From: Candidatus Bathyarchaeota archaeon
GTDB lineage: Archaea > Thermoproteota > Bathyarchaeia > Bathyarchaeales > Bathycorpusculaceae
Assembly (NCBI GenBank): GCA_963815095.1
Contig: CAWFFH010000007.1
Location: 60,457-124,456, forward strand
DNA: 64,000 nucleotides
Direction: 5' to 3'
Shown here: in pieces, positions 39,912 through 54,077 of the stretch
Position numbering within the stretch: position 1 is the stretch's first letter
How the letters are laid out: each line of letters begins with the position of its first letter
Notes under the pieces: model-generated
What the model saw: the letters and a program-made list of their open reading frames with translations, nothing else
Database searches by the model: none
Told to the model about the DNA's origin: nothing
Translations under genes and position numbers: made by a program

Positions 39912-40460
39912 TTAGATTAACTCTTTCGCTGCCTTAAGGTAGATTTCGAAATCTCGTTCGGAAAACAATACAAAAGTAACTTTTTCAATCCTATCTTCTT
40001 TTTCTAAAAACGCCTTAATTGTGCCAATTGCTACTCGGCTAGCTTCTTCGATGGGATAACTGTATGCTCCAGTGCTGATTGATGGAAATGCAATAGTTTT
40101 CAGCCCCTTGCTGACGGCAAGCTTTAACGAGTTCCTATATGCCTGTTTCAACAGTTCGGCTTCGACATGAAAACCTCCAAGCCAGACTGGTCCAACTGTG
40201 TGGATGACATGTTTAGCTTTTAGGTTTCCTCCAGAAGTTATAATTGCTTTACCAGTGGGCAATCCATCTGGCCACTCGGTTTCTCGGATGCGTTTGCATT
40301 CTGCAAGAATTTTTGGTCCACCTTTAAGATGTATAGCTCCATCCACTCCGCCGCCTCCAAGAAGCGTTGAGTTAGCTGCGTTTACAATGGCGTCAGCTTC
40401 AACCTCCGTAATGTCACTTTTGATTAATTCAAGCTTAGCGTTTCCAACTTTAAATTCCAT
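39912..40460 (-). CDS. macrodomain O-acetyl-ADP-ribose deacetylase (YmdB-like)
   Basis: DIT..EADAIVNAAN..LLGGGGVDGAIH, HTVGP and FPSISTG motifs. Confidence 0.92.
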   Translation of the reverse strand: MEFKVGNAKLELIKSDITEVEADAIVNAANSTLLGGGGVDGAIHLKGGPKILAECKRIRETEWPDGLPTGKAIITSGGNLKAKHVIHTVGPVWLGGFHVEAELLKQAYRNSLKLAVSKGLKTIAFPSISTGAYSYPIEEASRVAIGTIKAFLEKEDRIEKVTFVLFSERDFEIYLKAAKELI

Positions 40461-40490
40461 AGATATCCCTTATCTCAAATGGCTATTTAA

Positions 40491-41138
40491 CTATGCCAAC
40501 AAAGACCACAAAGCTGAACCAATAAAATACACGCCAAAACAAATGAATACAGCTATACAAAAAAGCGTAATTCCTATCCGTGTGCGCTCGGTCCAGAACC
40601 TTTGAGACTTAAAAATCAATAACGCAACCACAGTGTACCAGATAAAATCAGTGAGCCAATGAACCCCTGCAAAGATAGAAAACCCTAACAATCCAAACAA
40701 TTTTGCGTTCAAGATAAGAGTTGTTCCAATAGTTAGCCACCATAGGATAAAGCCTGCATTTGCAGCTGTCGTCCACGCTCCTGCAAGTACGGAATCCCGC
40801 TTAACACTCACAGTGCGCTCTTCTTGTTTGTGCCTGTTTATGAATGCCCGCAAGCCCATGAAAATCATTAGAAAACCACCAATCAAACTAATCATAACCT
40901 GCACGAAACTGGGGATTTCAAATTCGCTGAGCACAAAGAAAATCAGGAACATCAAAGGAATTTCAACTATAGCATGACCGACGGCTATCAGGGCGCCAGC
41001 TGTTTTGTTTTTTGATGCCTTTCGAATTGTGACCGCAAATAGTGGTCCCGGTATCAGAACCCCTGAAAGCGAGATAAGCAACACAGAGGCCAAGAATACA
41101 TAGAAGTCGGTGATAAACTCCAAGATCCAAGTCTCCAA
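40491..41138 (-). CDS. LysE-family translocator
   Basis: PGP motif, GHAIVE, and about 6 TM. Confidence 0.85.
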   Translation of the reverse strand: METWILEFITDFYVFLASVLLISLSGVLIPGPLFAVTIRKASKNKTAGALIAVGHAIVEIPLMFLIFFVLSEFEIPSFVQVMISLIGGFLMIFMGLRAFINRHKQEERTVSVKRDSVLAGAWTTAANAGFILWWLTIGTTLILNAKLFGLLGFSIFAGVHWLTDFIWYTVVALLIFKSQRFWTERTRIGITLFCIAVFICFGVYFIGSALWSLLA

Positions 41139-41228
41139 TGCTTTTCCAATCTTTTTGCATGGTCAGCTATAAGCTTTCACTCTCCAATGGATCTAAACAT
41201 ACTTTGAAACCTTCGCTTTAATCAAGCA

Positions 41229-41807
41229 TTACTCAAACACATTTTTGCTTGGCTCGCGTTTTTGAGGCTTTAACAACCTCGTTTGCATTTCTACAATGTC
41301 TGCGCTATCCTTAGCGGTTACGTAATTGTCTAGCAACATTTGGTTTACCTCAAAAAACGTGTGCCCCCACGGAAAAATCAACAAAACATCTTCCGCCTCT
41401 TTCTTAAAACCAGCAATGTACAAGGCTGCTGCGATGGCTTCAACGGTTGTTAGTTTGGTAAGCTTCCCATAATTCACGGGATTGCCTGCAATCAAAATGG
41501 GTAAGCACCTGCTGGTTCCCTTTACTTGTTTTTCCATAACTTTTTGGGCATGTTCCCAACTGCAATCTAACGCTGCTAATCCAAACTGTTCTAGCCTTTC
41601 CCTGTCCGCTGGAGAGAACGCAATTTCGCCAAATGGGTTGAGCACGATGGCTCGCTTTGGAAGAAACCTTGTACTTGTAACTATTCGGGCAAGTCCTCGG
41701 CGTTTAAGCCTCAAGGCAGTGTTTTTTTTAGGGTCATCTTGAGCAGCGTGATAAATCGTAAGCCTGACGGGTAAAACCTGCTTTTGACCTTCAGAATCAG
41801 ATTCCAC
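41229..41807 (-). CDS. tsr3: rRNA aminocarboxypropyltransferase Tsr3 (DUF367)
   Basis: QDDPKKNTA, DCSW, LP.LIAGNPVNYG, EAIAAAL and F.WGHTF motifs. Confidence 0.92.
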   Translation of the reverse strand: MESDSEGQKQVLPVRLTIYHAAQDDPKKNTALRLKRRGLARIVTSTRFLPKRAIVLNPFGEIAFSPADRERLEQFGLAALDCSWEHAQKVMEKQVKGTSRCLPILIAGNPVNYGKLTKLTTVEAIAAALYIAGFKKEAEDVLLIFPWGHTFFEVNQMLLDNYVTAKDSADIVEMQTRLLKPQKREPSKNVFE

Positions 41808-43344
41808 TTGGGCTTCGCACCTTCAAATGACTCATGGGATCTTCAAACACACGTGGAATCCAATCGATAATATCCGTGGCTACCATATGAAAACCAATTT
41901 CATCTGTAACGAAGTCACCTGCCGCACCATTCACGAAGGCACCTGCGACAGCTGCCTCAAAGGAGTCAACGTTTTGAGCCATCAAACTCCCTACTATGCC
42001 GCTTAGAACGTCACCTGTTCCACCTACAGTCATCCCTGGATTACCGGTAAAATTCATCTTTGCACGGTTTGCATCGCAGATTATGTCAACTTTTCCTTTT
42101 ACTAAAACGACAGCGTTGAGTTTTTTGGCGGTTTTCTGTATTGCTAAGACGCGTTCTTCTTGGTTATCAGGCAACACTTCTCCTGTAAGTATCGTGTATT
42201 CGCCAGCATGAGGCGTTAAAACAAGAGGAATTTTTAGGGGTCTTTTGAATTTCGCGAAAGCTTTCAATCCGTCAGCATCCAAAAGCAGCGGTTTTTTGGC
42301 TTTTTCAACTTCATCTACGCATGCCTTGACAAATTTGACTGTTTCAGGGTTTAATCCTAATCCGGGCCCCATGACAACCGCGTCAACCATGCCTATGTAA
42401 TGCTTAATTTTTTCCATGTTTGCTGAGGAAAGGCTGCTGCTATCTCCCTCAAGTTTTACGGTAATCAAGTCAGGAGATATGGATGAAATAGCGTAAGCTG
42501 TCTTTTCTGGTGCGACAAGGTAAGTTATGTCCACGCCTGTGCGCAGGGCCGCCAAAGAAACAAGTGTTGGAGCGCCAGAGTAAACTTCGCTGCCGCCAAT
42601 AACGAGCAGTCGTCCAAAATCGCCCTTGTGAGACGTAGGGCTACGCGATTTGGTTACGAGTAAAACGTCGCCTGGACCGGCAAACCGCTCTATTTCGGTC
42701 GGTAAGCCAATATCGACAACGGCGAGTTCTCCAACGTATTGTTTGGCTTTATCCAAACCTGCTTTTGCCTTATGAAATGTTATTGTAAGATCTGCTTTTA
42801 TGGCAGCGCCTAACACTTCGCCAGTATCTGAATCAATGCCTGTGGGCACATCGACTGCAATCTTGAAACCGCTCAGCGAGTTAATGTAATCGACCACTTT
42901 AGATGTTAATGGTTTTAGTTTTCCTTTCGTTCCAGTTCCAAGCAAAGCATCAATAATTATGCCAGCGTTAACTTTAGGAATTAGGGAACTATCTGTTACC
43001 TCAAGCAAGGTCACTTTGCTCTGTAGTGATTGAAGAATGCCCCAGTTGATCCGTGCGGCTTCATGGGTAATGTCGCGGCTTCTGCCTAGTAAAACCAATG
43101 TGACATCAAAATCCTCTGCCAAAAGATGTCTAGCAGCTACAAAACCGTCGCCCCCATTTCCACCTAGACCACAAAAAACAGCTGCTTTTTTGTTTTTTTG
43201 GAAGCGAGTAATAGTTTCTTGGGCTATGCTGCGTCCAGCGTTCTCCATCAGTTGAAGCAGACTAATGCCAAAGTATTGTGCGTTGACTTCTAGGGCACGC
43301 ATTTCGCGGCTTGCTATGTAGAGGGTTTTGTTTTTTGCTTGCAT
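41797..43344 (-). CDS. nnr: bifunctional NAD(P)HX epimerase/dehydratase
   Basis: LMENAG, GNGGDG, DVPTG, HKGDFG, TPHAGE and GGTGDVLSG motifs. Confidence 0.93.
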   Translation of the reverse strand: MQAKNKTLYIASREMRALEVNAQYFGISLLQLMENAGRSIAQETITRFQKNKKAAVFCGLGGNGGDGFVAARHLLAEDFDVTLVLLGRSRDITHEAARINWGILQSLQSKVTLLEVTDSSLIPKVNAGIIIDALLGTGTKGKLKPLTSKVVDYINSLSGFKIAVDVPTGIDSDTGEVLGAAIKADLTITFHKAKAGLDKAKQYVGELAVVDIGLPTEIERFAGPGDVLLVTKSRSPTSHKGDFGRLLVIGGSEVYSGAPTLVSLAALRTGVDITYLVAPEKTAYAISSISPDLITVKLEGDSSSLSSANMEKIKHYIGMVDAVVMGPGLGLNPETVKFVKACVDEVEKAKKPLLLDADGLKAFAKFKRPLKIPLVLTPHAGEYTILTGEVLPDNQEERVLAIQKTAKKLNAVVLVKGKVDIICDANRAKMNFTGNPGMTVGGTGDVLSGIVGSLMAQNVDSFEAAVAGAFVNGAAGDFVTDEIGFHMVATDIIDWIPRVFEDPMSHLKVRSPSGI

Positions 43345-43397
43345 ATTGACGCCTGATTATTGTTATGTATGGTTAAAAGATAAGCATATCCTTAGCT

Positions 43398-43423
43398 GTA
43401 TACAAAAGCATCGCCCAAACACA
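43398..43423 (+). repeat. 26-bp dispersed repeat, copy 1
   Basis: GTATACAAAAGCATCGCCCAAACACA. Confidence 0.9.
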
Positions 43424-43480
43424 TAAATCAACTTGATCTGTTTTGCTGACCTCAAAACTGGAAAAAAATTCGAAGATCAA

Positions 43481-43498
43481 CGAACTATATATAATCAT
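43481..43498 (+). promoter_or_regulatory. BRE/TATA-like box with no nearby gene
   Basis: CGAACTATATATAATCAT; 16/18 identical to 45048-45065. Confidence 0.5.
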
Positions 43499-44289
43499 AC
43501 TTGCATTCAATTCAAAATAAAAGAGGAAACAAAATAAAGTGGCTAAACCGTGTTAGGAATCATGGCTATTAACATTCCAAACAATCGTTTAATTAAGAAG
43601 AAACCTCTTTAAGCGTAAGATTGCGGTTATTTTTCTACGAAAATGACAGGGACTACCCTTTCGAGACACTTCAAGAGAAACATGTACTATGTGAAACTAT
43701 TTTTTTGGCGTAGAAACTCTTCTTGGAAGTTTTTTGAATTGTTTTGGAAGCATTTTTTTCTTCAAATGAAATGAATTTTGTTTCTTCAAATGAGTCCTTT
43801 TATGTGCTTACGTAAAATTAGACGGTTTTAATTGCTATGTCTTTTTTTGTTTGAGCGAAAAATAGTCGAACGTCACTTTTTTACACTAAAAAGTTAAAAC
43901 ACCCCTTGATTATTACGTAAAAATTAATGAAACAACTATAACTTACCATAGGGAGCTTTACTTAGAAGCACAAAAAATAACGAAGGTGCATCTTCAAACC
44001 TAAAATTGCTATCGTTAAAAATTTATTTTTCAAAATTTCAAACTTTAAATTCAATAAAAAAGGTTGGTTTTTTGGTTGAGAGTTTTTGCGCTACCTCTCT
44101 TTCAGTTCCAGAAGATACTTTGAAGAGAACGTAAGCTAACATCGCGCCATGATTTCACCATTTTCATAGTCTTGTTAAGTCGTAATTACTTTTCCAAAAC
44201 ATCAATTTGGGCAAAAAAGTTTATCCATACCTTTACGTTTACTTAGTTCAGGTTTTAGCCTACATTCTTGAAGAACTATATTTCTGAAA

Positions 44290-45024
44290 ATGGTGACTTG
44301 TTTGAATAAAAACTATATGATAAAAAACTCGGATGCCCTCTTAGTAACAGACATACAAAAAGATTTTCTGCCCGGCGGGGCCTTGCCAATCGAAAACGGT
44401 GATGAAATAATCCCCGTCATCAATAATTACATAAAATATTTTGAAAACGCTAAGGCACATGTTTTAGCGTCTCGAGATTGGCACCCAAGCAACCATGTTT
44501 CCTTCACAACTCAAGGAGGACCTTGGCCACCACATTGCATCCAGGAAACAAGCGGCGCAAAGTTTAGCGCTGAACTTAAACTGCCCAAACGCACAATCAT
44601 TATTTCCAAAGCTACCAATCCTCAAAATGAAGCATATTCAGCCTTTGATGGAACAAGCCTCGCCCATGAGCTTCAGACTTTATGTGTAAAGCGGCTTTTC
44701 GTTGCCGGATTAGCGACCGATTACTGTGTGGTTAATACCGTTGTTGATGCACGTAAGTTGGGCCTTGAAGCAGTGGTGCTTATGGATGCAACATTGGGAA
44801 TTAACTTGGAGCCAGGTGATGTAGATCGAGCCATTGAAACGATTGTTAAATATGGTGCCCAACAGGCCACTGCCGACGATTTTCCAGATGCTGTTGATAA
44901 ATTGTCCATAGAAGAAACGCAGCCTGACGCGTTAGCAGAGAAACCTTCACTACGCGCAGAAGTTAAGAAAAAAGCTCGAATGCGCCCTAAAGGAGCCACT
45001 AAGCAAATTCGGACGGAGCGATAA
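44290..45024 (+). CDS. pncA: nicotinamidase/pyrazinamidase
   Basis: D.QKDF.PGGAL, DWHP..H.SF, WPPHC, YSAF and GLATDYCV motifs. Confidence 0.92.
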   Translation: MVTCLNKNYMIKNSDALLVTDIQKDFLPGGALPIENGDEIIPVINNYIKYFENAKAHVLASRDWHPSNHVSFTTQGGPWPPHCIQETSGAKFSAELKLPKRTIIISKATNPQNEAYSAFDGTSLAHELQTLCVKRLFVAGLATDYCVVNTVVDARKLGLEAVVLMDATLGINLEPGDVDRAIETIVKYGAQQATADDFPDAVDKLSIEETQPDALAEKPSLRAEVKKKARMRPKGATKQIRTER

Positions 45025-45047
45025 GGCTAAGTTTTTTCGAACAGCGA

Positions 45048-45065
45048 CGAACCTTATATAATCAT
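45048..45065 (+). promoter_or_regulatory. BRE/TATA-like box inside an inverted repeat
   Basis: CGAACCTTATATAATCAT, facing the convergent pncA-yjbQ gap. Confidence 0.5.
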
Positions 45066-45597
45066 CGGAGTAGAATTCCTGTAAAAAAGCGTAAGGTTCG
45101 TTGTATGACTTTTTTTTCCAAAAATATTTTTAACTGGACTTCTAAAAAGGTTTTCTATTCGGATTAAATGCATCACTCGGAGTTATTTGGCTTAATTAAC
45201 AGGTTGAAACGAGCTGAATGCCTCTTGCTAATGGTGTTTTAGGCTATGTTTTGAACTTTACAGGTTCGATTGTGCTTTTGGTGAGATTGCATAACTTTAG
45301 TAACATCTTTCTAATTTTATTCCCTTGTTCGTACACGTTTTAAAATCAACTTTTGATGCTAAAGAAGTGTTTTCCAAAGTTGTCAATCCCTTAACATGCC
45401 CAATTTGGTTTTTTGTTTACGAAATTTTTTCGAGTAGTAACTTTTTACAATAAATAGTGAAAACAACAGACATCATATTCTGAATTTATCATCAAACAGT
45501 TAATTTTGCACGTAAACAGTCGCACTTTCTCCTATTCGAGAGCCGAAAAATGAAAACTTTCAATAAAATATTTTTACCACCACTCGGAGCACGATTT

Positions 45598-46014
45598 TTA
45601 TTGTTCGCCCAGAACTTGAATAATTATTGTCCTAGCTCGGGGATAAACGTCGGTCTCAACAAAAAGGAGTGATTGCCAAGTTCCAAATTCGACGTTACCA
45701 TTAACTATTGGCAGAGTTTTATCTGGAGGAAGAAGCATGGAACGCAAATGTGAATGCGCATTAGAAGGATGCTGGTATGCCCCATGTTTTGGCGCAATCT
45801 CTTCTAGAAAAACTTTAATATCTTTCAGCAACGCGGAGTCGTTTTCAGTTAAGATGAGAATGCCTGTGGCATGTGGAGCGAATACATGGACTATACCGTT
45901 TCGGATTTCTGAAATGTCAACCGTCTCCTGGACTTTATCTGATAAGTTTACAAAGTCAATTTCTCCTTGCGTGGAAAAAGTGTAAGTTTTGTTTATGACT
46001 TTAAAGTTTGACAT
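45598..46014 (-). CDS. yjbQ: YjbQ/UPF0047 family protein
   Basis: PHATG...ENDS, NAHSHLRS, GTWQ and R.R motifs. Confidence 0.88.
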   Translation of the reverse strand: MSNFKVINKTYTFSTQGEIDFVNLSDKVQETVDISEIRNGIVHVFAPHATGILILTENDSALLKDIKVFLEEIAPKHGAYQHPSNAHSHLRSMLLPPDKTLPIVNGNVEFGTWQSLLFVETDVYPRARTIIIQVLGEQ

Positions 46015-46080
46015 TCTAGGCTCTCCCGCTATTTTATCAGTTCACTTGGCTGAAAAAGTTTTCGAGTTTGATTAAATGAC

Positions 46081-46106
46081 TGTGTTTGGTTGATGCTTTT
46101 GTATAC
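46081..46106 (-). repeat. 26-bp dispersed repeat, copy 2
   Basis: Reverse complement reads GTATACAAAAGCATCAACCAAACACA. Confidence 0.9.
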
Positions 46107-46559
46107 AGAAAAGGTCAAGGTTAATTTTATTGAAGTTGATTTTCATCATTTTTAACAATCATATGCGATTAATTCTTAACAAGATAACTTTTTCAGGCTT
46201 CTTCTGAGACTTTCAATTATTTGTGTCTTGACAAACAAAATACCATGGGGCTGACGATAGCTAACATTTGCCCAAATTTTTCCAGATACCATGATGACGT
46301 CATTTCAGTGTATATTACATTTACTACTCACTACAATGACAGCTCTTTTTAATCAATCACAGTTAACAAAATTAAGTAATTTAGGCATCTTTAAGCATAT
46401 GTAATAATGCTTTTGAATTCCAAATAAGCTTGAAAACTGATTACTTACCAACTCTTTAATCAGCTCTACCTCCAAACCGTGTCTAAAAGAAATAACCAAA
46501 TAGCTTTGAAGAAAATCAAAAACATTTACAAATTAATTAATAGTTGCATTTTTCTAAAA

Positions 46560-46789
46560 AAATCCTATCCACTTTCAAGAGGCACTGAAATCAAAGCTGG
46601 AATAAACTCAGTGTTTCTTGAATAAGAAAGTGGCAGCTGAAAGGAACAGTTGTTTTCAGAGCAGTGAGTTGTTTTTGAAAGTATCAGCACTTATTGTGGC
46701 TCCAATTTGTCTGTGAGTATGTCACCAGTTAAAGTTAGGATTTCTGGACCCTGTGCTTAGAGGGGCCTCTTTCGCGGACACTTTTTTTT
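46560..46789 (+). ncRNA. candidate structured non-coding RNA (unassigned)
   Basis: Nested helices with G-U pairs favouring the + strand, a TATA-like box upstream and a T8 tract downstream; details in findings. Confidence 0.45.
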
Positions 46790-47720
46790 GTATTCAAAAA
46801 AACTCTTGCTTAGCTCGATTCAAAGCTTGTTTAGAAGTGGACACAAGTGAGAAAGAGTCTATAATGTTAGCGAAAAAATAATTTTATTAACTTAGACCAA
46901 AATTAAAAATTTTTCTTAGTTCAAAAATTTTCGGGTAACCGTTGAGGCTTTTTATCATAAATAGCCTGTATTTGGACTTATTTTGCCTTAATTTTGTGTT
47001 AGTGCTATTGTTTTGCTCCGAAAGACGTTAAATACAGAAAACAATGATTTTTTTCTATGGAAACGATAATCTAAAGGCTCAAATTGCAGTCAAAATGGTA
47101 AAAAACCCTCAATTACGCCCTCATCGGTTTTAGCTCAATGAACTGGTATGGACATTACCGGAGCCTCATATAAGTACCTCCGAAAATCTCCATGCGAAGC
47201 AAGTGTCTGTTTTTTCGGCTAGCCTTCGAGGAAAAACCCCTTTTTTTGATAAATTGGATAACTTTGGCATTTTGGCTCAAAAGATTTTTTCAGAAAAGTT
47301 TTGTCATTAGGAAGTAATTCTTGGCTGTGTTGGTTTTGTTTTGGTGAATTGATGACTGGGTTTCTAAGTTTTGATCCAATTTCTATTTGGCGAGTATATT
47401 GTCTGGTGTTTGTTTTTTGTCTGAAAGGATTTCCTTGGGAGACCAGAAAAGGTTCTAGTTGAGCATTCTGTATTGAGTTTCTTTGGTTTTTTGAAGGATA
47501 GGTTATGTTTCTGTGGGAATTTTTGGTCTCTTAGGGAGCGTTATTTTCTATCTCTTTCAAGTCAACAATCACTTTTCGTATGCTTACTGTAGTCTAATCG
47601 GCGGTTATTTTTCATGTGTGGATGTTGAAGAATGCGTAATCAGTGGCTATAGTTGTGTAAGTAATACTTGCAATTTACACCATCACCAGTGCGCTCCAGC
47701 CACACCAACCTAAACGGGCA

Positions 47721-47746
47721 GTATACAAAAGCATCCCCAAAACACA
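47721..47746 (+). repeat. 26-bp dispersed repeat, copy 3
   Basis: GTATACAAAAGCATCCCCAAAACACA. Confidence 0.9.
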
Positions 47747-47816
47747 TTTCCAACTTGCTCCCAAGGAACCATTTTTATGTTAAGAGCTCAATAAATAGAA
47801 ACATTCTGAGTGGAAA

Positions 47817-48272
47817 TTGTTGGCAACAGAGATCGACCGCATCAAACTTAGGCGATGGCGCAAAAGAGGCTTCTACAGCGAAACAGTCCTAGTCAAGCTC
47901 TTACAAAAAAAAGGCTACAATTCCGTCCGCGTCCCAGTTAGCAACCCTAGCCTCAACCCTCTACCCGACGTCATGGCCCGAAAAGGCAAACACATGTACG
48001 CGTTTGAAGTAAAAAACGCAAGCTACTACGCCTACTTCCCAAGAATACAAATCGACAAACTCTTCCGATTTCTCGACCAATTCATTCCCTCAGGAAACGA
48101 AAACAAACACGCCGTCATCGCCGCTCACCTGGGGAAACGATGGATATTCAAAGAAATCAGCTGGAACGACTGGGAAAAAAACAAACTCCCTGACAAAGTA
48201 AGAATCTTAAAACGGGACCGCGGCAACCTAAACATAGACACAAGCTACCAGCAACTGGAAAAAACAGAATAA
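47817..48272 (+). CDS. Hjc-like Holliday junction resolvase / PD-(D/E)xK nuclease
   Basis: RG..SE..LV..L...GY..VRVP.S...PDV.A...FEVK pattern. Confidence 0.8.
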   Translation: MLATEIDRIKLRRWRKRGFYSETVLVKLLQKKGYNSVRVPVSNPSLNPLPDVMARKGKHMYAFEVKNASYYAYFPRIQIDKLFRFLDQFIPSGNENKHAVIAAHLGKRWIFKEISWNDWEKNKLPDKVRILKRDRGNLNIDTSYQQLEKTE

Positions 48273-48697
48273 AACAAATTATTACCTTTCAGGCAAACTG
48301 ACACTTAATTCGCGCCACATTTAGAACGTCTACCTCAAAAAAAAATGATATAATCGTCTCTTTACAAGCCTTAGGAAAAACATGCGTTACGTGAAATAAA
48401 CTTTAAGTCTTAAAAAAAATAAACCTGCAAATTCCACAAACAATATTTGCATTGTGTGGCGTTATAGGTTCAGGCAAAACCGCTTCCTCAACATTATAGT
48501 TAAGAATTAAATGCTATCGTCGGGAAAAAATCGTGTTTGCAGATCGGCATCTGACAGAGCAAGATGAGGATTTTTGTCAGATTTCCGCTGTACCCATGTT
48601 GGTTCATTTTTCAAGCGTAGTTTGATTACTTGCAGCCTTATTTTTTATGTTCATCTTTGGTCGCCTCCCGGTGCTTAGACTCGATTAAGCCGCGATT

Positions 48698-49405
48698 CTA
48701 AAAATCTTGACTTAACGTTTTGAACGTTTTAGGGAAAAACTTTAGCATTTCCGTGTAAGCAACCAGTTGGTGAATGAAATCTTGGAGCTGAAGGACAGGC
48801 ACCACTGGAACTTTCTCGTAAAACTTGAAGGAGCTGGGTATTAGGGAGAGCACAGTTGGAATAAACTTGGCTTTTTCCCATCGAGTGCATTCAAGTTTTA
48901 TGTTTATGTTAGGCAGTGAATCTGCTAACGCATGGGTTCTTTGTGTTTGTAAATCAACAATTTTTTTCAAAGCTGACGCTGCAATCGAACGTTGCCAATG
49001 TTTACAATCAATACAAACGACTAACGGCTTTTTGCATCCGACTACATCGATTTCCCATCTTTTTTCGTTGTGTTTGAATCGGACATTGTTTTGGACGACA
49101 TAACCATTATTTTTGAGGGCCAAAGCGGCGATTTCTTCAAACTCTTGCCAACAAAGCAAATCGCTAATTTGTTCAATGTCAGCCCCTAATTGTGATGCTT
49201 TAATGGCTAGTTTAAGTCTGCTGCCTCCGTTTATTTCAATGCTGGAGGGTTTGAGGTAAATGAGGTTTTCTTTTTGTAGTTTTTCAAGCAAATCTAATGT
49301 GACTGTTGAAGGTATCTTGGCTTCTCTTTTAACACTTTCAACTAAAGCAGGTCCTTCTTTAGTCAGTTTCAGCAGCGAAATCAATAGATTCCGTTCAACA
49401 CTCAT
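48698..49405 (-). CDS. wHTH + PD-(D/E)xK (Mrr/NERD-like) nuclease
   Basis: WQEFE...EIDVVG...IDCKHW; N-terminal segment resembles a wHTH. Confidence 0.78.
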   Translation of the reverse strand: MSVERNLLISLLKLTKEGPALVESVKREAKIPSTVTLDLLEKLQKENLIYLKPSSIEINGGSRLKLAIKASQLGADIEQISDLLCWQEFEEIAALALKNNGYVVQNNVRFKHNEKRWEIDVVGCKKPLVVCIDCKHWQRSIAASALKKIVDLQTQRTHALADSLPNINIKLECTRWEKAKFIPTVLSLIPSSFKFYEKVPVVPVLQLQDFIHQLVAYTEMLKFFPKTFKTLSQDF

Positions 49406-49496
49406 AACCTAACCTCAGGAAAATCAACATAAAGGATTCAAGAACAGTCAAATTACTCTGATTTGAGGCTGAACCTAAATCGACAAAGAATAAACC

Positions 49497-49522
49497 GTAT
49501 ACTAAAGCATGTCCCAAACACA
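49497..49522 (+). repeat. 26-bp dispersed repeat, copy 4 (diverged)
   Basis: GTATACTAAAGCATGTCCCAAACACA. Confidence 0.85.
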
Positions 49523-50195
49523 CTTTTATCAACCTCTCAGAAAATCCGGCTGCCCTCAAAGTCATCAATAATCTCCATCCTTACCTACTGTTTTAAAATC
49601 TAAGCCCTGTCGCTGAAATAACCTTTCCCATTGTTTCTATAAAAATGAAAATTTCGCTTACCTTCGCTACTCGTAGGTCCAAAAAACAAAAAGCCCCATG
49701 GATACTTGCACTGATTAATGTTACTCTATTCAACTATGCTATGTTATCTTTAACTTTTTAATGTAAAAAATGAACGTTCGATGGTTTTTCGCTTAAGATA
49801 AACTAACTTGGAAGCCTTAATCAAATAAATTTCGCTGAAAAAATCCACGACTCTTAGGAATACAAGATATAAGAAGACCCACCCAAAGCAAAAATAATAG
49901 AAGATTAACAAAAAATGGCACTACGCTCGTTTGAGACTGAAACTTAAGGGTTCTTTCATCCTTACAAGAAATAAAAAAACACTAAAAAACGAGATTCTAA
50001 CGACACAATTTAAGAAACTTGAGATTTTTTTTGGTTTTTGTTTCTGATCAAGCGGATAAAAAGGGGAATCAACGATTTATCTTTCATTACGTATATTTTT
50101 TCTGATTTTGGGAAGCTTAGTGTCTTAATCTTGTTGCAGAAGTTTGTAGCAGGAACAATGCTTTTTCAGTTTTTATCACTTAAGTCCGGCACGTA

Positions 50196-50208
50196 TATAT
50201 AAGGTTCG
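50196..50208 (-). promoter_or_regulatory. BRE/TATA-like box with no nearby gene
   Basis: Reverse complement CGAACCTTATATA is identical to 45048-45060. Confidence 0.5.
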
Positions 50209-50270
50209 TAAAGTTTCGGGAATTTAACGACTTATGAGCTAAATTTTTAAAAATTCTGAAAACCGTTTTG

Positions 50271-50296
50271 TGTGTTTTGGCGATGCTTTTGTATAC
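50271..50296 (-). repeat. 26-bp dispersed repeat, copy 5
   Basis: Reverse complement reads GTATACAAAAGCATCGCCAAAACACA. Confidence 0.9.
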
Positions 50297-50396
50297 AAAC
50301 CCAGAATAGACCATTTAATCGACTAAAAAAACCCAAAAATAGCCCCGTACATACGCTTTAAATATTAAGTAAGGGTTAGCTGAATAGGTAATTTTT

Positions 50397-51416
50397 ATGA
50401 CGCTTATGAGAGCAATCCAAGTTAACCACCCTGGTGGCGAATTTGTTCTAGCGCAAAAGGAAATTCCTGAACCAAAAGAACACGAAACCTTTCTCAAGGT
50501 TGAGGCCTGCGGCATTTGTCATGGGGACGCGATCGTTAAGTATGGGGGTTTTCCCGGTTTACAGTATCCGCGAACACCCGGACACGAGGTTGTTGGTACT
50601 ATTGCGAAGTTGGGTTCTCAATCACATTATTGGAAGGTTGGGCAAAGGGTTGGGGTTGGTTGGCGTGGCGGGCATTGCCAAAAATGTAAATCTTGCTTAA
50701 AAGGCGATTATTGGGCTTGTGAGAGTCCTTTGGCAACAGGAATTTCAACTGATGGTGGATACGCTGAGTACATGGTTGCTCGTGTGGATGTTTTAACTGC
50801 TATTCCTGATGAACTTACCTCAGTGGAAGCTGCACCGCTTCTGTGTGCTGGTGCAACAACGCTTGGAGCCTTGAAAAGTAGCGCTGCAAAAGGTGGAGAT
50901 TTAATTGCAATTCAAGGTTTTGGGGGTTTAGGTCACTTGGCGTTGCAGTTTGCTGTGCGGCTGGGTATGAAAACCGTGGTTATTTCTCGCGGGAAAGAGA
51001 AAGAAGATCTGGCCCGTAAACTTGGTGCCCAATTTTACATAGATGCAGAAACCGCTAACCCAAGTCAGGAACTCATGAATCTTGGTGGAGCAAAAGCTAT
51101 CTTTTGCACTGCACCTAACAGCAAAGCCATTGGAGACCTCGTTGAAGGGCTAGCCCGCAATGGACAACTAATCATCGTTACTTTTGTTAATGAGCCAATG
51201 CAGATTTCTCCTTCACAACTGATGCGTGCAGTAAGGTCAGTTAGTGGTTGGGTGGGCGGAAATACAGCTGACACACTAAACTTTAGCGTCCTAACACATG
51301 TTGTTCCCATGGTTGAGGTTTTTCCTCTTGAACAAGCGGCCGTAGCTTTTGAGCGCATGATGACTGCAAAGGTTCATTTTAGGGCAGTTTTAAAGATTGG
51401 AGATGGTTCAAAATGA
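50397..51416 (+). CDS. zinc-dependent alcohol dehydrogenase (MDR family)
   Basis: CGICHGD, GHE, CxxCxxC...C and GFGGLG motifs. Confidence 0.92.
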   Translation: MTLMRAIQVNHPGGEFVLAQKEIPEPKEHETFLKVEACGICHGDAIVKYGGFPGLQYPRTPGHEVVGTIAKLGSQSHYWKVGQRVGVGWRGGHCQKCKSCLKGDYWACESPLATGISTDGGYAEYMVARVDVLTAIPDELTSVEAAPLLCAGATTLGALKSSAAKGGDLIAIQGFGGLGHLALQFAVRLGMKTVVISRGKEKEDLARKLGAQFYIDAETANPSQELMNLGGAKAIFCTAPNSKAIGDLVEGLARNGQLIIVTFVNEPMQISPSQLMRAVRSVSGWVGGNTADTLNFSVLTHVVPMVEVFPLEQAAVAFERMMTAKVHFRAVLKIGDGSK

Positions 51417-52126
51417 ATGAGGTTTCAAGACTAATTCAGGAAAGGCAATCAGCAAGAGTTCCCTTTGACCCGAATCAGAGAGTGTCCAAAGAAGATCTTA
51501 AGCAAATTTTAGAGGCGGGTCGATGGACGCCTACAGCCCACAATATGCAAAACTTTGATGTTGTGGTTGTGGATGACAAAGAGGTTTTGGAGATAATTGG
51601 AAATGTTAAGTCCCGGATTTCGGAAGTGTTTCTTAGAGAAAACTATGAGCAACTTTCATTCTCAAAAGAGGAATTGCAGGAGAAGAAGACTGGAATTTTA
51701 GGTGCTATGTTTCCTCCAGCGTGGGTGGATCCGTCAAAAATGGCTGATGTTGCCTCTAAAAGCGAACCTATGCCATTGACTCAATCCATTCGTGGCAGTC
51801 CTTGCCTTTTGATAATAATTTATGACCCGAGCAAGAGAGCCCCTGCATCTGAAGGCGATGTTTTAGGTTTTATGAGTCTTGGATGTCTTATGGAAAACAT
51901 GTGGCTTATGGCTCAATCCTTGGGAATTGGCTTTCAGATACTCAGTGCTTTCGCAGCTCCACCAGTAGAAAAACAGGTAAAACAAATTCTAGGAATCCCT
52001 GAACAATTAAGAATTGCATATGCCTGCCGACTAGGACATCCCATAGGAGCATCCAAATACTTCAGAGTACGCCGCGACATCGCAGATTTCACCCATCACA
52101 ACAAATATGGAAACAAAGACATCTAG
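51413..52126 (+). CDS. nitroreductase family protein
   Basis: R.S.R, ILEAGRWTPTAHNMQ and ENMWLMA.SLGIG motifs. Confidence 0.88.
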   Translation: MNEVSRLIQERQSARVPFDPNQRVSKEDLKQILEAGRWTPTAHNMQNFDVVVVDDKEVLEIIGNVKSRISEVFLRENYEQLSFSKEELQEKKTGILGAMFPPAWVDPSKMADVASKSEPMPLTQSIRGSPCLLIIIYDPSKRAPASEGDVLGFMSLGCLMENMWLMAQSLGIGFQILSAFAAPPVEKQVKQILGIPEQLRIAYACRLGHPIGASKYFRVRRDIADFTHHNKYGNKDI

Positions 52127-52204
52127 CCTATTTCGGCTTTCCTAAATTATTTTATTTTTCTTTCTAATAAAGGTCGAAAGAAGAAAAAATCACAAATAAA
52201 AAAA

Positions 52205-52408
52205 TTATTCTTTTTCTTCTTCTTTGATTTCGCACTGCAGCTTCTTTATGATTTCGTCTGCTCTCAGCGGCTCAATCTTTAATGTATAGAGTTGACCGGG
52301 TGTGCGAAGTTTCAATTTTACGGTGTCTTTGAGCCTTTTTACTTGGCATTGTTTTGCTTTGGCGCTCATGGCCACAAATTTTTCGACATCAGTAATTTCA
52401 GATGGCAT
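52205..52408 (-). CDS. rpl38e: 50S ribosomal protein L38e
   Basis: MP.EI.D...F...VK.K.RT...LYTL pattern of eL38; 67 aa. Confidence 0.85.
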   Translation of the reverse strand: MPSEITDVEKFVAMSAKAKQCQVKRLKDTVKLKLRTPGQLYTLKIEPLRADEIIKKLQCEIKEEEKE

Positions 52409-52573
52409 GATTTATCCTTCTTGTGTTAGTTCGTTGTGATGGATGCAAAGCCAAGTTTTTATCTGTTTTGGTACAACCTAAGATTCCCATGGGAAATTGC
52501 ATGTTATTGCAACTTTTATATTCAATCAACCTTCACTCATATAACGGAAAGCAGGCAATAAGAGTGCTAAGAT

Positions 52574-53830
52574 ATGGAATATAAGCGAATAAAAACTCGA
52601 CACATCCTCTCGCTTATCCTAATAGTTATCTTACTTGTTGCAACAGTGTCGCTGCTTGTTTCATACACCCAAAGCAGCAACGCTCAAAAAAACCCCGTTT
52701 ACGTTGGCGTTGCCTACGGCGGCAACACAACTCTTGGCGCAGAACTTCTAATTGACAAAGTTAAAAGTTACACCAATCTGTTCGTTTTGGATTCTGGCTT
52801 AAATTCCATAAGCAAAAACCAGACAGCCGTAGAGGAAATCTGCGATTACGCTGTCAAAGCTGGGTTAAACATAATTGTGAACTTGGGAACATATACCAAT
52901 CAGACGGATTGGGCTTGGAAACTCCAATTCTATAATTTCTCCAAAGAAAAATATAACGACAAATTTCTGGGCGCATATTACGATGATGAACCGGGAGGAA
53001 TACCTCTTGACTGGAATTGGACAAAGCAATTCTCTGAAAACAGCGCACTTTTTTCTGGGGCAAATCCGCTGGATTTAACCCCGATTCACTATAAAATCCA
53101 AATAGCCAACATAACAGGAACCCAACCGCAGAATTACACCATAGAAGCCCAATGGTTTAACCAGCTTTTAGAACGAAACAGAGGACACAACAGCCTCAAA
53201 CAAAACAACATCACAACTTTTACTTCCGATTATGCCCTCTACTGGTTTGATTACCTTGGCGGATACGACACCCTCTTTACGCAGTTAGGCTGGAACGAAA
53301 GTATAAATGAACAAATTTCACTCATCCGTGGAGCTGCAACTATGCAGAACAGAGATTGGGGAGCAATCATAACTTGGAAGTATACGCATTTTCCATATCT
53401 TGACACAGGCGTAAACATTTACAGCCAGATGGAAGCAGCATACAATTGTGGAGCTAAATACATCTTACTTTTCAATTTGGAATTTGACCCTTATAACGCC
53501 ACAAGCAACCCCTATGGTACAATGACCAATGAGCACTTCCAAGCGCTCCAACAATTCTGGAGCCAAGTCGTAACAAAATCAACGCCGAACTCAGTACATG
53601 CCAATGCTGCTTTGGTTTTACCCAACGATTATGGTTCAGGATTGAGAAGTCCAACTGATGGGATTTGGGGTTTTTGGGGACCAGACAATAATTCAGCCCT
53701 AATTTGGAATAATACTCAGACTCTTCTCAACATGTACGGTTTGCATTTGGATATTATTTATGAGGATCCAATGTTTCCCGTACAGGGAAATTACTCGCGA
53801 ATTTACTATTGGAACCAAACGATCACTTAG
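52574..53830 (+). CDS. secreted/anchored hypothetical protein (possible glycoside-hydrolase-like barrel)
   Basis: N-terminal hydrophobic helix, GAYYDDEPGG, Trp/Tyr-rich, many NxS/T sequons. Confidence 0.65.
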   Translation: MEYKRIKTRHILSLILIVILLVATVSLLVSYTQSSNAQKNPVYVGVAYGGNTTLGAELLIDKVKSYTNLFVLDSGLNSISKNQTAVEEICDYAVKAGLNIIVNLGTYTNQTDWAWKLQFYNFSKEKYNDKFLGAYYDDEPGGIPLDWNWTKQFSENSALFSGANPLDLTPIHYKIQIANITGTQPQNYTIEAQWFNQLLERNRGHNSLKQNNITTFTSDYALYWFDYLGGYDTLFTQLGWNESINEQISLIRGAATMQNRDWGAIITWKYTHFPYLDTGVNIYSQMEAAYNCGAKYILLFNLEFDPYNATSNPYGTMTNEHFQALQQFWSQVVTKSTPNSVHANAALVLPNDYGSGLRSPTDGIWGFWGPDNNSALIWNNTQTLLNMYGLHLDIIYEDPMFPVQGNYSRIYYWNQTIT

Positions 53831-53876
53831 AGATAAATTGAAAGAAAAAGGGTTCAGGTTTTGACCTGCTGCTTAT

Positions 53877-54077
53877 TTAAGCTTTTTTTGAGCGAATGCC
53901 CAGCTTAAGATTTACTTCAACGACGTATTCTTTTTCCATTTTGCCAACGGAGAAGTTCCAATCCTTGACTTCAACTTCCATATCCTTGAATTGGTTTACA
54001 ATCGCTTCTTTGTATTCTTGAGCGGTTTGTCCAATCTTCTGTAACTTCTCAGTGATGTTAACTGATGTATCTGCCAT
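53877..54077 (-). CDS. small hypothetical protein
   Basis: 66 aa with a strong GGAGGTG SD upstream. Confidence 0.7.
   Translation of the reverse strand: MADTSVNITEKLQKIGQTAQEYKEAIVNQFKDMEVEVKDWNFSVGKMEKEYVVEVNLKLGIRSKKA

Follow-up and report, generated by a model that had tools for sequence, protein, structure and literature searches.

A 26-bp word recurs five times between positions 43,398 and 50,296 of a 64,000-nucleotide stretch of DNA from a Candidatus Bathyarchaeota archaeon (assembly GCA_963815095.1, contig CAWFFH010000007.1, positions 60,457 to 124,456; the whole stretch is hereafter called the window). Our analyses revealed that this motif is a real, polar, cis-acting element: its sequence is nearly invariant, its orientation is kept among relatives, and it recurs close to gene starts, both in the window and at unlinked loci. 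The word is probably the upstream binding site of a putative transcription regulator, which would control a small regulon spread over one family of Bathyarchaeia; protein binding and activation at the motif are suggested by the comparison of sequences. An earlier reading of the window, made from its letters alone (the sequence-only reading), had proposed a dedicated chromosomal locus, such as a replication origin, a centromere or SMC-loading site, a fork barrier or a set of inversion sites.

Occurrence, conservation and promoter position of the motif

The source genome (G000) comprises 2.69 Mb in nine contigs, of which the window is C7:60457-124456. When the whole window was searched with the 26-bp pattern GTATACAAAAGCATCNNCNAAACACA, allowing up to three mismatches, five matches were found, as against none (mean 0.00, maximum 0) in 100 dinucleotide-preserving shuffles. 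They are the five sites of the sequence-only reading, with the same coordinates and strands and with two mismatches in copy 4 (Table 1); its further observations that four copies agree in their first 15 bp, and all five in AAACACA, also hold. A position weight matrix (PWM) built from relatives likewise found no sixth copy in the window at a score of at least 5. A degenerate sixth copy near 47450, plausible by eye, scored below 5 and was not counted. The distances to the adjoining start codons, previously put at about 55–100 bp, run from 53 bp at nnr through 66 bp at yjbQ, 70 bp at hjc and 91 bp at the winged helix-turn-helix (wHTH)-nuclease gene to 100 bp at adh, and both orientations relative to the adjoining gene are represented, as claimed. 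In a logo of 135 instances, the flanks of the motif carry about 0 bits and no other position is conserved at a fixed distance.

A scan of the whole genome revealed three further copies, all on contig C3, intergenic and reading towards a gene. Each of the eight genomic sites therefore counted lies 45–128 bp from the start of a gene transcribed away from it. Weaker matches to the core (two mismatches in 15) were mostly found within open reading frames (ORFs), at about chance level, and were set aside.

The scan of the relatives extended the motif to unlinked loci, and the cluster in the window is itself kept across the genus and the family. With up to two mismatches, the motif is present in 23 of the 24 other congeneric genomes, at 4–10 copies each, and in none of 16 genomes from other genera of the order; a reversed control pattern gave no match in all 41 genomes. 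The exact 15-bp core, GTATACAAAAGCATC, occurs in 26 of the 27 other genomes of the family, which represent 11 genera. Outside the family, two genomes of the order's other families have this core, as does one genome from the rest of the class, where one match was obtained with the control as well. The 5' 18 bp of the motif are kept family-wide, and the 3' AAACACA is specific to the genus.

The position of the motif relative to genes was assessed at the 134 sites with enough flanking sequence, using random intergenic positions of the same loci as the control. The start of a gene transcribed away from the site lies within 130 bp at 89 of the 134 sites (66%), compared with 839 of 2640 random positions (32%). 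These 89 promoter-proximal sites comprise 47 that face a gene in the reading direction of the motif only (forward), 33 that do so in the reverse direction only, and nine that do both. The forward distances cluster at 50–77 bp, with a median of 65.5 bp, and the median of the reverse distances is 63 bp. ORFs were called crudely, as frames of at least 80 aa opened at the first start codon, and at 22 sites more than half of the motif fell within such an ORF, probably owing to over-long N-termini.

Several genes recur behind the motif. Among the 49 dispersed sites that were examined (those left out include G001:C6:329522, G021:C20:11629, G023:C82:30 and G008:C314:141), the motif stands upstream of a Glu/Leu/Phe/Val (ELFV) dehydrogenase gene, identified by Pfam, in 13 genomes, and always faces it. 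Other recurring targets that are not linked to the cluster are a 98-aa MazG-like gene in four genomes, a PNP/MTAP-like phosphorylase gene in two, and nth in two. Archaeal promoters carry a TATA box centred near −26, with the transcription factor B recognition element (BRE) just upstream. A conserved A/T-rich box, TCTTATCTAGCC, lies beyond the motif at the dehydrogenase gene, after a spacer of 5–21 bp; at hjc, the genus conserves a box, AACAATTTTTATCT, 22–26 bp past the motif; and at nnr, a box, GCTTATCTTT, is found about 12 bp from the GTATAC end of the motif. These boxes between motif and genes are likely TATA elements, an identity assigned by their sequence and place, and taking them as such puts the motif at the position of an activator site. 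The sequence-only reading had named an ordinary transcription factor regulon, with sites scattered over the genome at a fixed distance from TATA boxes, as one outcome opposed to its own proposal; an arrangement largely of this kind, with sites at unlinked promoters next to TATA-like boxes, is what we observe.

A regulator site and its alternatives

We therefore consider a model in which a sequence-specific regulator of one Bathyarchaeia (Bathy-6) family would bind the 26-bp site, which would precede the BRE/TATA region by a few to about 30 bp and would function in either orientation. Transcripts would begin about 25 bp after the TCTTATCTA / ATTTTTATCT boxes, and none would begin at the motif. 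The genes that the motif faces in the forward direction would be yjbQ, hjc (together with an ABC transporter in relatives), the nicotinamidase-like gene, the ELFV dehydrogenase gene, nth with its peroxiredoxin gene, and the MazG-like and MTAP-like genes; nnr, the wHTH-nuclease gene and LysE would be the members that it faces in reverse. The cluster in the window would then represent several promoters of the regulon gathered at one place.

The upstream activator sites of archaea, such as the Ptr2 sites of Methanocaldococcus jannaschii, offer a close parallel on several counts, as they too are short sites directly upstream of BRE/TATA (of the likely TATA elements, in the case of the motif) that are common to a few promoters, kept among relatives and able to work in either orientation. 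In contrast to such sites, the 26-bp motif is not palindromic and is nearly invariant at 26 positions, a third of its sites have no recognisable gene start beside them, and several of its copies share one 7-kb locus.

Several observations weigh against a regulator site. With 26 positions that are nearly invariant and form no palindrome, the motif specifies more than most regulator sites require, and a start codon within 130 bp is lacking at 45 of the 134 sites. Some sites face the 3' end of a convergent gene, and others face tracts free of ORFs. The TATA-like boxes lie anywhere from 5 to 26 bp beyond the motif, with a spacing that differs between genera, and the distances to starts carry some error because the ORF calls are crude. 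The target genes share no obvious function. A cognate factor was not found among the candidates considered: the wHTH-nuclease proved negative, and a ribbon-helix-helix (RHH) gene beside nth (196 aa) is a weak candidate that has the motif core at only 5 of its 25 loci.

One alternative, which we regard as unlikely, is that the motif is itself a specialised core promoter that fires in its reading direction. In that case, GTATACAAAA would be the TATA-like box and the remainder of the word would constitute the initially melted region and the initiator, yielding mRNAs with leaders of 50–75 nt as well as non-coding transcripts in the empty tracts. The polarity of the site, its A/T-rich 5' end, and the 56 of 134 sites that face a start codon 31–128 bp away (at the median distance given above for the forward sites) are consistent with this view, as are copies 1, 4 and 5, which read into ORF-free DNA. 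However, the reverse-facing sites at nnr, the wHTH-nuclease gene and LysE are placed just as tightly, separate conserved TATA-like boxes occur downstream of the motif, and some sites run straight into the 3' end of a convergent gene. Furthermore, conservation upstream of the motif amounts to one C in the logo, with no BRE-like signal.

It is still less probable that the copies serve as sites of recombination or mark where an old segment, mobile or invertible, ends. The inverted outer units (motif, island 1 and island 2, described below) would in that case let the 7-kb segment flip or cassettes enter. The outer copies are indeed inverted, each at the head of an imperfect inverted unit of about 500 bp, and the gene content changes at motif boundaries, as in G006, where a 430-aa ORF lies between two copies of the same orientation. 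In G013 and G014, moreover, the whole segment is inverted relative to both flanks, and nnr keeps its 53 bp to a motif copy. Compared with window positions 41797-52472, the loci of these two genomes (L036 and L042) have nnr and a small gene (52205-52408) on swapped sides. Sequence comparison indicates that the segment was inverted once in evolution, and the constant distance from nnr to the motif places the breakpoints in the terminal inverted units; yet a single inversion between 0.5-kb inverted repeats is an ordinary outcome of homologous recombination. The inversion sites proposed earlier keep a little support from the 7-kb rearrangement, seen in 2 of 17 loci, whereas between the inward-facing copies 0.6–0.8 kb apart neither internal order nor orientation varies in 12 of 12 genomes, which argues against a phase-variable switch. 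No integrase, invertase or other recombinase domain was found among the cluster ORFs scanned; the Hjc protein is the only one of its family in the genome, and the nuclease is class-wide.

The pair also shares features with invertible promoter switches. As in Hin/hix and fimS, inverted 26-bp sites (the size of a hix site) bracket a segment of 0.6–0.8 kb with a strong promoter-like box, but the orientation here is fixed, an invertase gene was not found, and the motif also stands singly at other promoters. Similarly, inverted copies bound DNA segments in the manner of the terminal inverted repeats of miniature inverted-repeat transposable elements (MITEs) or insertion sequences (ISs). Unlike such ends, the motif has a low copy number, is syntenic in 17 loci rather than scattered, keeps solo copies at unlinked promoters, and retains its sequence as its flanks diverge. 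A target-site duplication was seen at one of 14 inverted pairs only, a possible 5-bp one in the source genome, and no transposase was found, so an origin of the word as an IS or MITE end finds no support.

We give very little credence to the cluster being a non-canonical replication origin, a centromere or loading site for structural maintenance of chromosomes (SMC) proteins, or a fork barrier built of polar 26-bp sites. The observations in its favour are the five to six clustered copies in both orientations, the long AT-rich intergenic tracts (31–37% GC, against 40.9% for the window), the preservation of the locus across the family, and copies 4 and 5, which point inward across 748 bp. The motif also resembles the origin recognition box (ORB) of archaeal oriC in being a repeated element of about 25–30 bp with inverted copies around AT-rich DNA, kept in relatives. 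It does not match the ORB consensus quoted by the sequence-only reading, as that reading had correctly noted: it has neither the dyad core nor the G-string that we take to make up the consensus. It also differs from an ORB in not lying beside orc1/cdc6 and in having copies dispersed among promoters. These unlinked copies have a fixed orientation, and the smallest genomes of the family keep just a divergent pair beside yjbQ or hjc. The span between copies 4 and 5 has 33% GC, holds conserved promoter-like islands and is several times the length of the ~150-bp AT-rich stretch at the orc1-1 origin.

Canonical inverted ORB elements are found upstream of orc1-1. The intergenic region there, of about 700 bp and 34% GC, holds three TTCCAGT(A/G)GAA...GGGGTG elements set around a very AT-rich stretch. 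Two of the elements share a strand and the third is on the opposite one, and they are kept in the source genome (C3 ~666.6-667.1 kb, L219:440-900) and in G002 and G013 (L220, L221). By its sequence features, this region is a conventional origin composed of ORB elements and an unwinding element. No ORB element was found on the window's contig, C7. The two orc1/cdc6 genes lie on contig C3, and in the closed genomes G002 and G013 each is separated from the cluster by more than 500 kb. The cumulative GC skew, proposed earlier as a check, has no extremum at the cluster, in a genome where the skew is noisy throughout, the orc1 loci included. The dedicated locus of the sequence-only reading is thus not supported by these data. 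A broader chromosome-organising role, as a second, Orc1-independent origin or as a loading or boundary site for a segregation or SMC-type protein, appears equally remote; one factor would then read the polar sites, the inward terminal units would delimit a domain, and the promoter copies would be secondary uses.

Architecture of the cluster

The features of the locus are collected in Table 1. Neither the gene order nor the orientation of any motif copy differs among 17 syntenic loci: nnr transcribed leftwards, a plus-strand motif, the rightward isochorismatase gene, leftward yjbQ with its minus-strand motif, a plus-strand motif ahead of rightward hjc (followed, where present, by an ABC ATPase and an FtsX permease gene), the leftward wHTH-nuclease gene with a plus-strand motif upstream of its start, and a minus-strand motif before a variable rightward gene. 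The other genera of the family share this plan. The smallest family genomes have only the divergent motif pair, 230–330 bp apart, and G031, of another family, has divergent yjbQ and hjc on either side of two outward-reading copies 231 bp apart. The divergent pair, with about 250 bp between the sites that serve yjbQ and hjc, is probably the ancestral core, judging from its distribution.

Table 1. Motif copies, genes, non-coding units and relics. Positions are those of the window; the three copies on contig C3 lie outside it.
Feature	Positions	Strand	Remarks
Motif copy 1	43398..43423	+	GTATAC end 53 bp from nnr start; reads into unit A, then towards the nicotinamidase-like gene
Motif copy 2	46081..46106	-	Faces yjbQ; 66 bp to ATG
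Motif copy 3	47721..47746	+	Faces hjc; 70 bp to start
Motif copy 4	49497..49522	+	2 mismatches; points away from wHTH-nuclease gene, 91 bp from ATG
Motif copy 5	50271..50296	-	Inward into unit C; GTATAC end 100 bp from adh start
C3 copy, ELFV dehydrogenase gene			54 bp away; Pfam
C3 copy, nth then peroxiredoxin gene			45 bp away; RHH-domain gene divergent on other side; Pfam
C3 copy, purM-like gene			Weakest, 3 mismatches; 128 bp away; Pfam
nnr, NAD(P)HX epimerase/dehydratase	41797..43344	-	Left flank, divergent from copy 1; Pfam Carb_kinase, YjeF_N
Isochorismatase-family, nicotinamidase-like gene	44290..45024	+	Pfam; NCBIfam nicotinamidase/pyrazinamidase 2e-46, below equivalog cut-off
yjbQ (UPF0047)	45598..46014	-	Pfam/NCBIfam
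hjc	47817..48272	+	Sole Hjc-family gene of genome; Pfam/NCBIfam
wHTH + PD-(D/E)xK nuclease gene (NERD/Mrr_cat/YraN-like)	48698..49405	-	Pfam
Zinc alcohol dehydrogenase gene (adh)	50397..51416	+	Right flank, variable between genomes; Pfam
Unit A island 1	43469..43498	+	TTCGAA-N5-ACGAAC then TATATAA (BRE/TATA-like), ~60 bp past copy 1
Unit A island 2	43851..43898	+	GCGAAAAA-N3-TCGAACG..TTTTTTACAnTAAAAAGTTAAA; 48 nt, 83% match to 49749-49796
Unit B island 1	45036..45065	+	No 26-bp motif ahead
Unit B island 2	45419..45463	+	Repeat comparison
Unit C island 1	50195..50225	-	~58 bp past copy 5; faces wHTH-nuclease gene
Unit C island 2	49749..49796	-	Repeat comparison
Remnant similar to 147-aa ORF of G009	43952..44146	+	tblastn E 1e-6, 42% identity over 72 aa
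Conserved non-coding core with invariant GCCTCATATAAGTAC	47146..47230	+	Single-copy in genome; no Rfam match
Deletion relic of ABC ATPase + FtsX-type permease operon	48335..48709	+	tblastn

The individual copies keep their places in relatives. The orthologue of copy 1 is 50–58 bp from nnr, and in G007, G015 and G023, three genomes without unit A, it is found 68–120 bp directly upstream of the isochorismatase gene. The orthologue of copy 2 is 51–72 bp from yjbQ in ten relatives and is present in other families too. Copy 4 was followed through 76 wHTH-nuclease loci picked by protein similarity alone: 72 of them have the core upstream, always reading away from the gene, and in 68 of these 72 it is 78–96 bp from the start, with a mode of 91–92 bp. 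The core is kept there, although little of the 91 bp between it and the gene is conserved. In 12 genomes, copy 4 has a partner that faces inward, at pair lengths of 623–825 bp. To the right, adh and a nitroreductase gene (window positions 50397-52126) separate copy 5 from the small flank gene; both are missing there in G014 and G021, and the right flank is therefore a variable insertion point.

The tract was described earlier as gene-poor, and our counts bear this out. ORFs of at least 80 aa cover 33.6% of positions 43398-50296, compared with 90.5% in the remainder of the window and 83.7% over the whole genome, and only four of 5266 sliding windows of 7 kb are equally ORF-poor, in two loci, this tract and one at ~1.51 Mb of C3. 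The latter (~1,510-1,518 kb) is not rRNA; it lacks the 26-bp motif and notable tandem repeats, and matches nothing in Rfam. The window contains no tRNA, and an Rfam scan of positions 40000-54000 gave no match at E values up to 1. The tract appears empty because genes have been lost and family-specific non-coding modules are carried.

Three non-coding units of two islands each were identified: A (43469-43898), B (45036-45463) and C (50225-49749, on the minus strand). Each island consists of CGAA-N7-CGAAC followed by an A/T box, and the two islands of a unit are about 370 bp apart, with unconserved sequence between them. The unit is confined to this cluster and is kept in the family. Island 1 has three copies in the 2.69-Mb genome, all in the cluster; island 2 is found in 21 of 24 congeners, at one to three copies, solely on the contigs that carry the cluster. 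Units A and C follow the outer motif copies by about 60 bp and point inward, which gives the cluster a long, imperfect inverted repeat at either end. The island-1 boxes of A and C are about 790 bp upstream of the nicotinamidase-like and wHTH-nuclease genes, respectively, and face those genes. That island 2 might be the end of a gene was considered and rejected: the frames ending there have at most 56 codons in 36 of 38 copies, and 154 and 79 codons in the other two. The units could be long leaders, non-coding RNA genes or protein-binding arrays.

Another conserved element, at 47146-47230, may be a plus-strand hairpin RNA. The base pair formed by its columns 45 and 62 is AU in six sequences, GC in five, CG in one and GU in one, and is broken in three; the G-U wobbles pair on the plus strand only, and the invariant GCCTCATATAAGTAC falls in the loop. 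Covariation support is modest.

Relics of coding sequence were also found. An operon of ABC ATPase and FtsX permease genes follows hjc in most relatives; it is intact in G001, according to Pfam, and deleted in the source genome, where tblastn matched ATPase residues 2–114 (E 2.5e-13) and permease residues 604–631, the last 28 codons (E 0.011), within 48335-48709. The tract between copies 2 and 3 was also considered as a decayed gene of about 750 aa, such as is present there in other genera; no similarity was detected, the best E value being about 2. On contig C3, the purM-like gene behind the weakest motif copy (~795.3-796.4 kb) is split into two overlapping ORFs, AIRS and AIRS_C, which is a frameshift or an assembly error.

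Candidate factors and implications for the family

The two proteins encoded within the cluster had been suggested as trans factors of a dedicated locus. This does not fit the Hjc-like protein: hjc is the only gene of its family in the genome, and its product is therefore presumably the housekeeping resolvase. The wHTH-nuclease fares no better. Its gene is class-wide, being found in single copy in 156 of the 201 genomes of the class, and it was not found in three genomes that are 93–95% complete and all have the motif pair (G117, G175 and G219). The gene is better read as a regulated target, because it is class-wide and missing from these motif-bearing genomes.

Some features of the wHTH-nuclease deserve mention in their own right. 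In the AlphaFold2 model, the N-terminal wHTH domain has a predicted local distance difference test score of 84–92 over residues 1–80, and the remainder is poor; E118, D120, D133 and K135 are invariant in 29 orthologues. The gene is convergent with hjc at every locus examined, and its product may act with Hjc as a conserved partner in DNA repair. The Bathyarchaeia wHTH-nuclease is also encoded, at 78% identity, on a 1.5-kb contig that is filed under an Ignavibacteriales metagenome-assembled genome (MAG), probably through an error of binning. Elsewhere in the order, in genomes of other families (L094:1391-1549, L096 and L097), a small RHH gene stands directly before hjc, with TATGCAT palindromes upstream; no homologue of this gene was found in the source genome or in the clusters of the motif-bearing family.

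We found no description of the motif in print. The literature searched yielded no text containing the 15-mer. The searched text of the Bathy-6 complete-MAG paper (PMC11697101), exclusive of its supplements, contains no passage on replication, GC skew, cdc6, repeats or promoters, and a search for work on Bathyarchaeia replication origins returned papers that, by their listings, are all unrelated.

To conclude, our work describes a polar 26-bp element that is kept at promoters across one Bathyarchaeia family, with a cluster of copies in the window. As a by-product, a conventional ORB-type origin has been located at orc1-1 in this lineage. To our knowledge, nothing is known of gene control in uncultured Bathyarchaeia. 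If the motif is a regulator site, a word of 15–26 bases would predict a small, family-wide set of co-controlled promoters of genes for DNA repair, NAD salvage and repair, and amino-acid and nucleotide metabolism, and the motif would provide a direct bait for the regulator in enrichment cultures.

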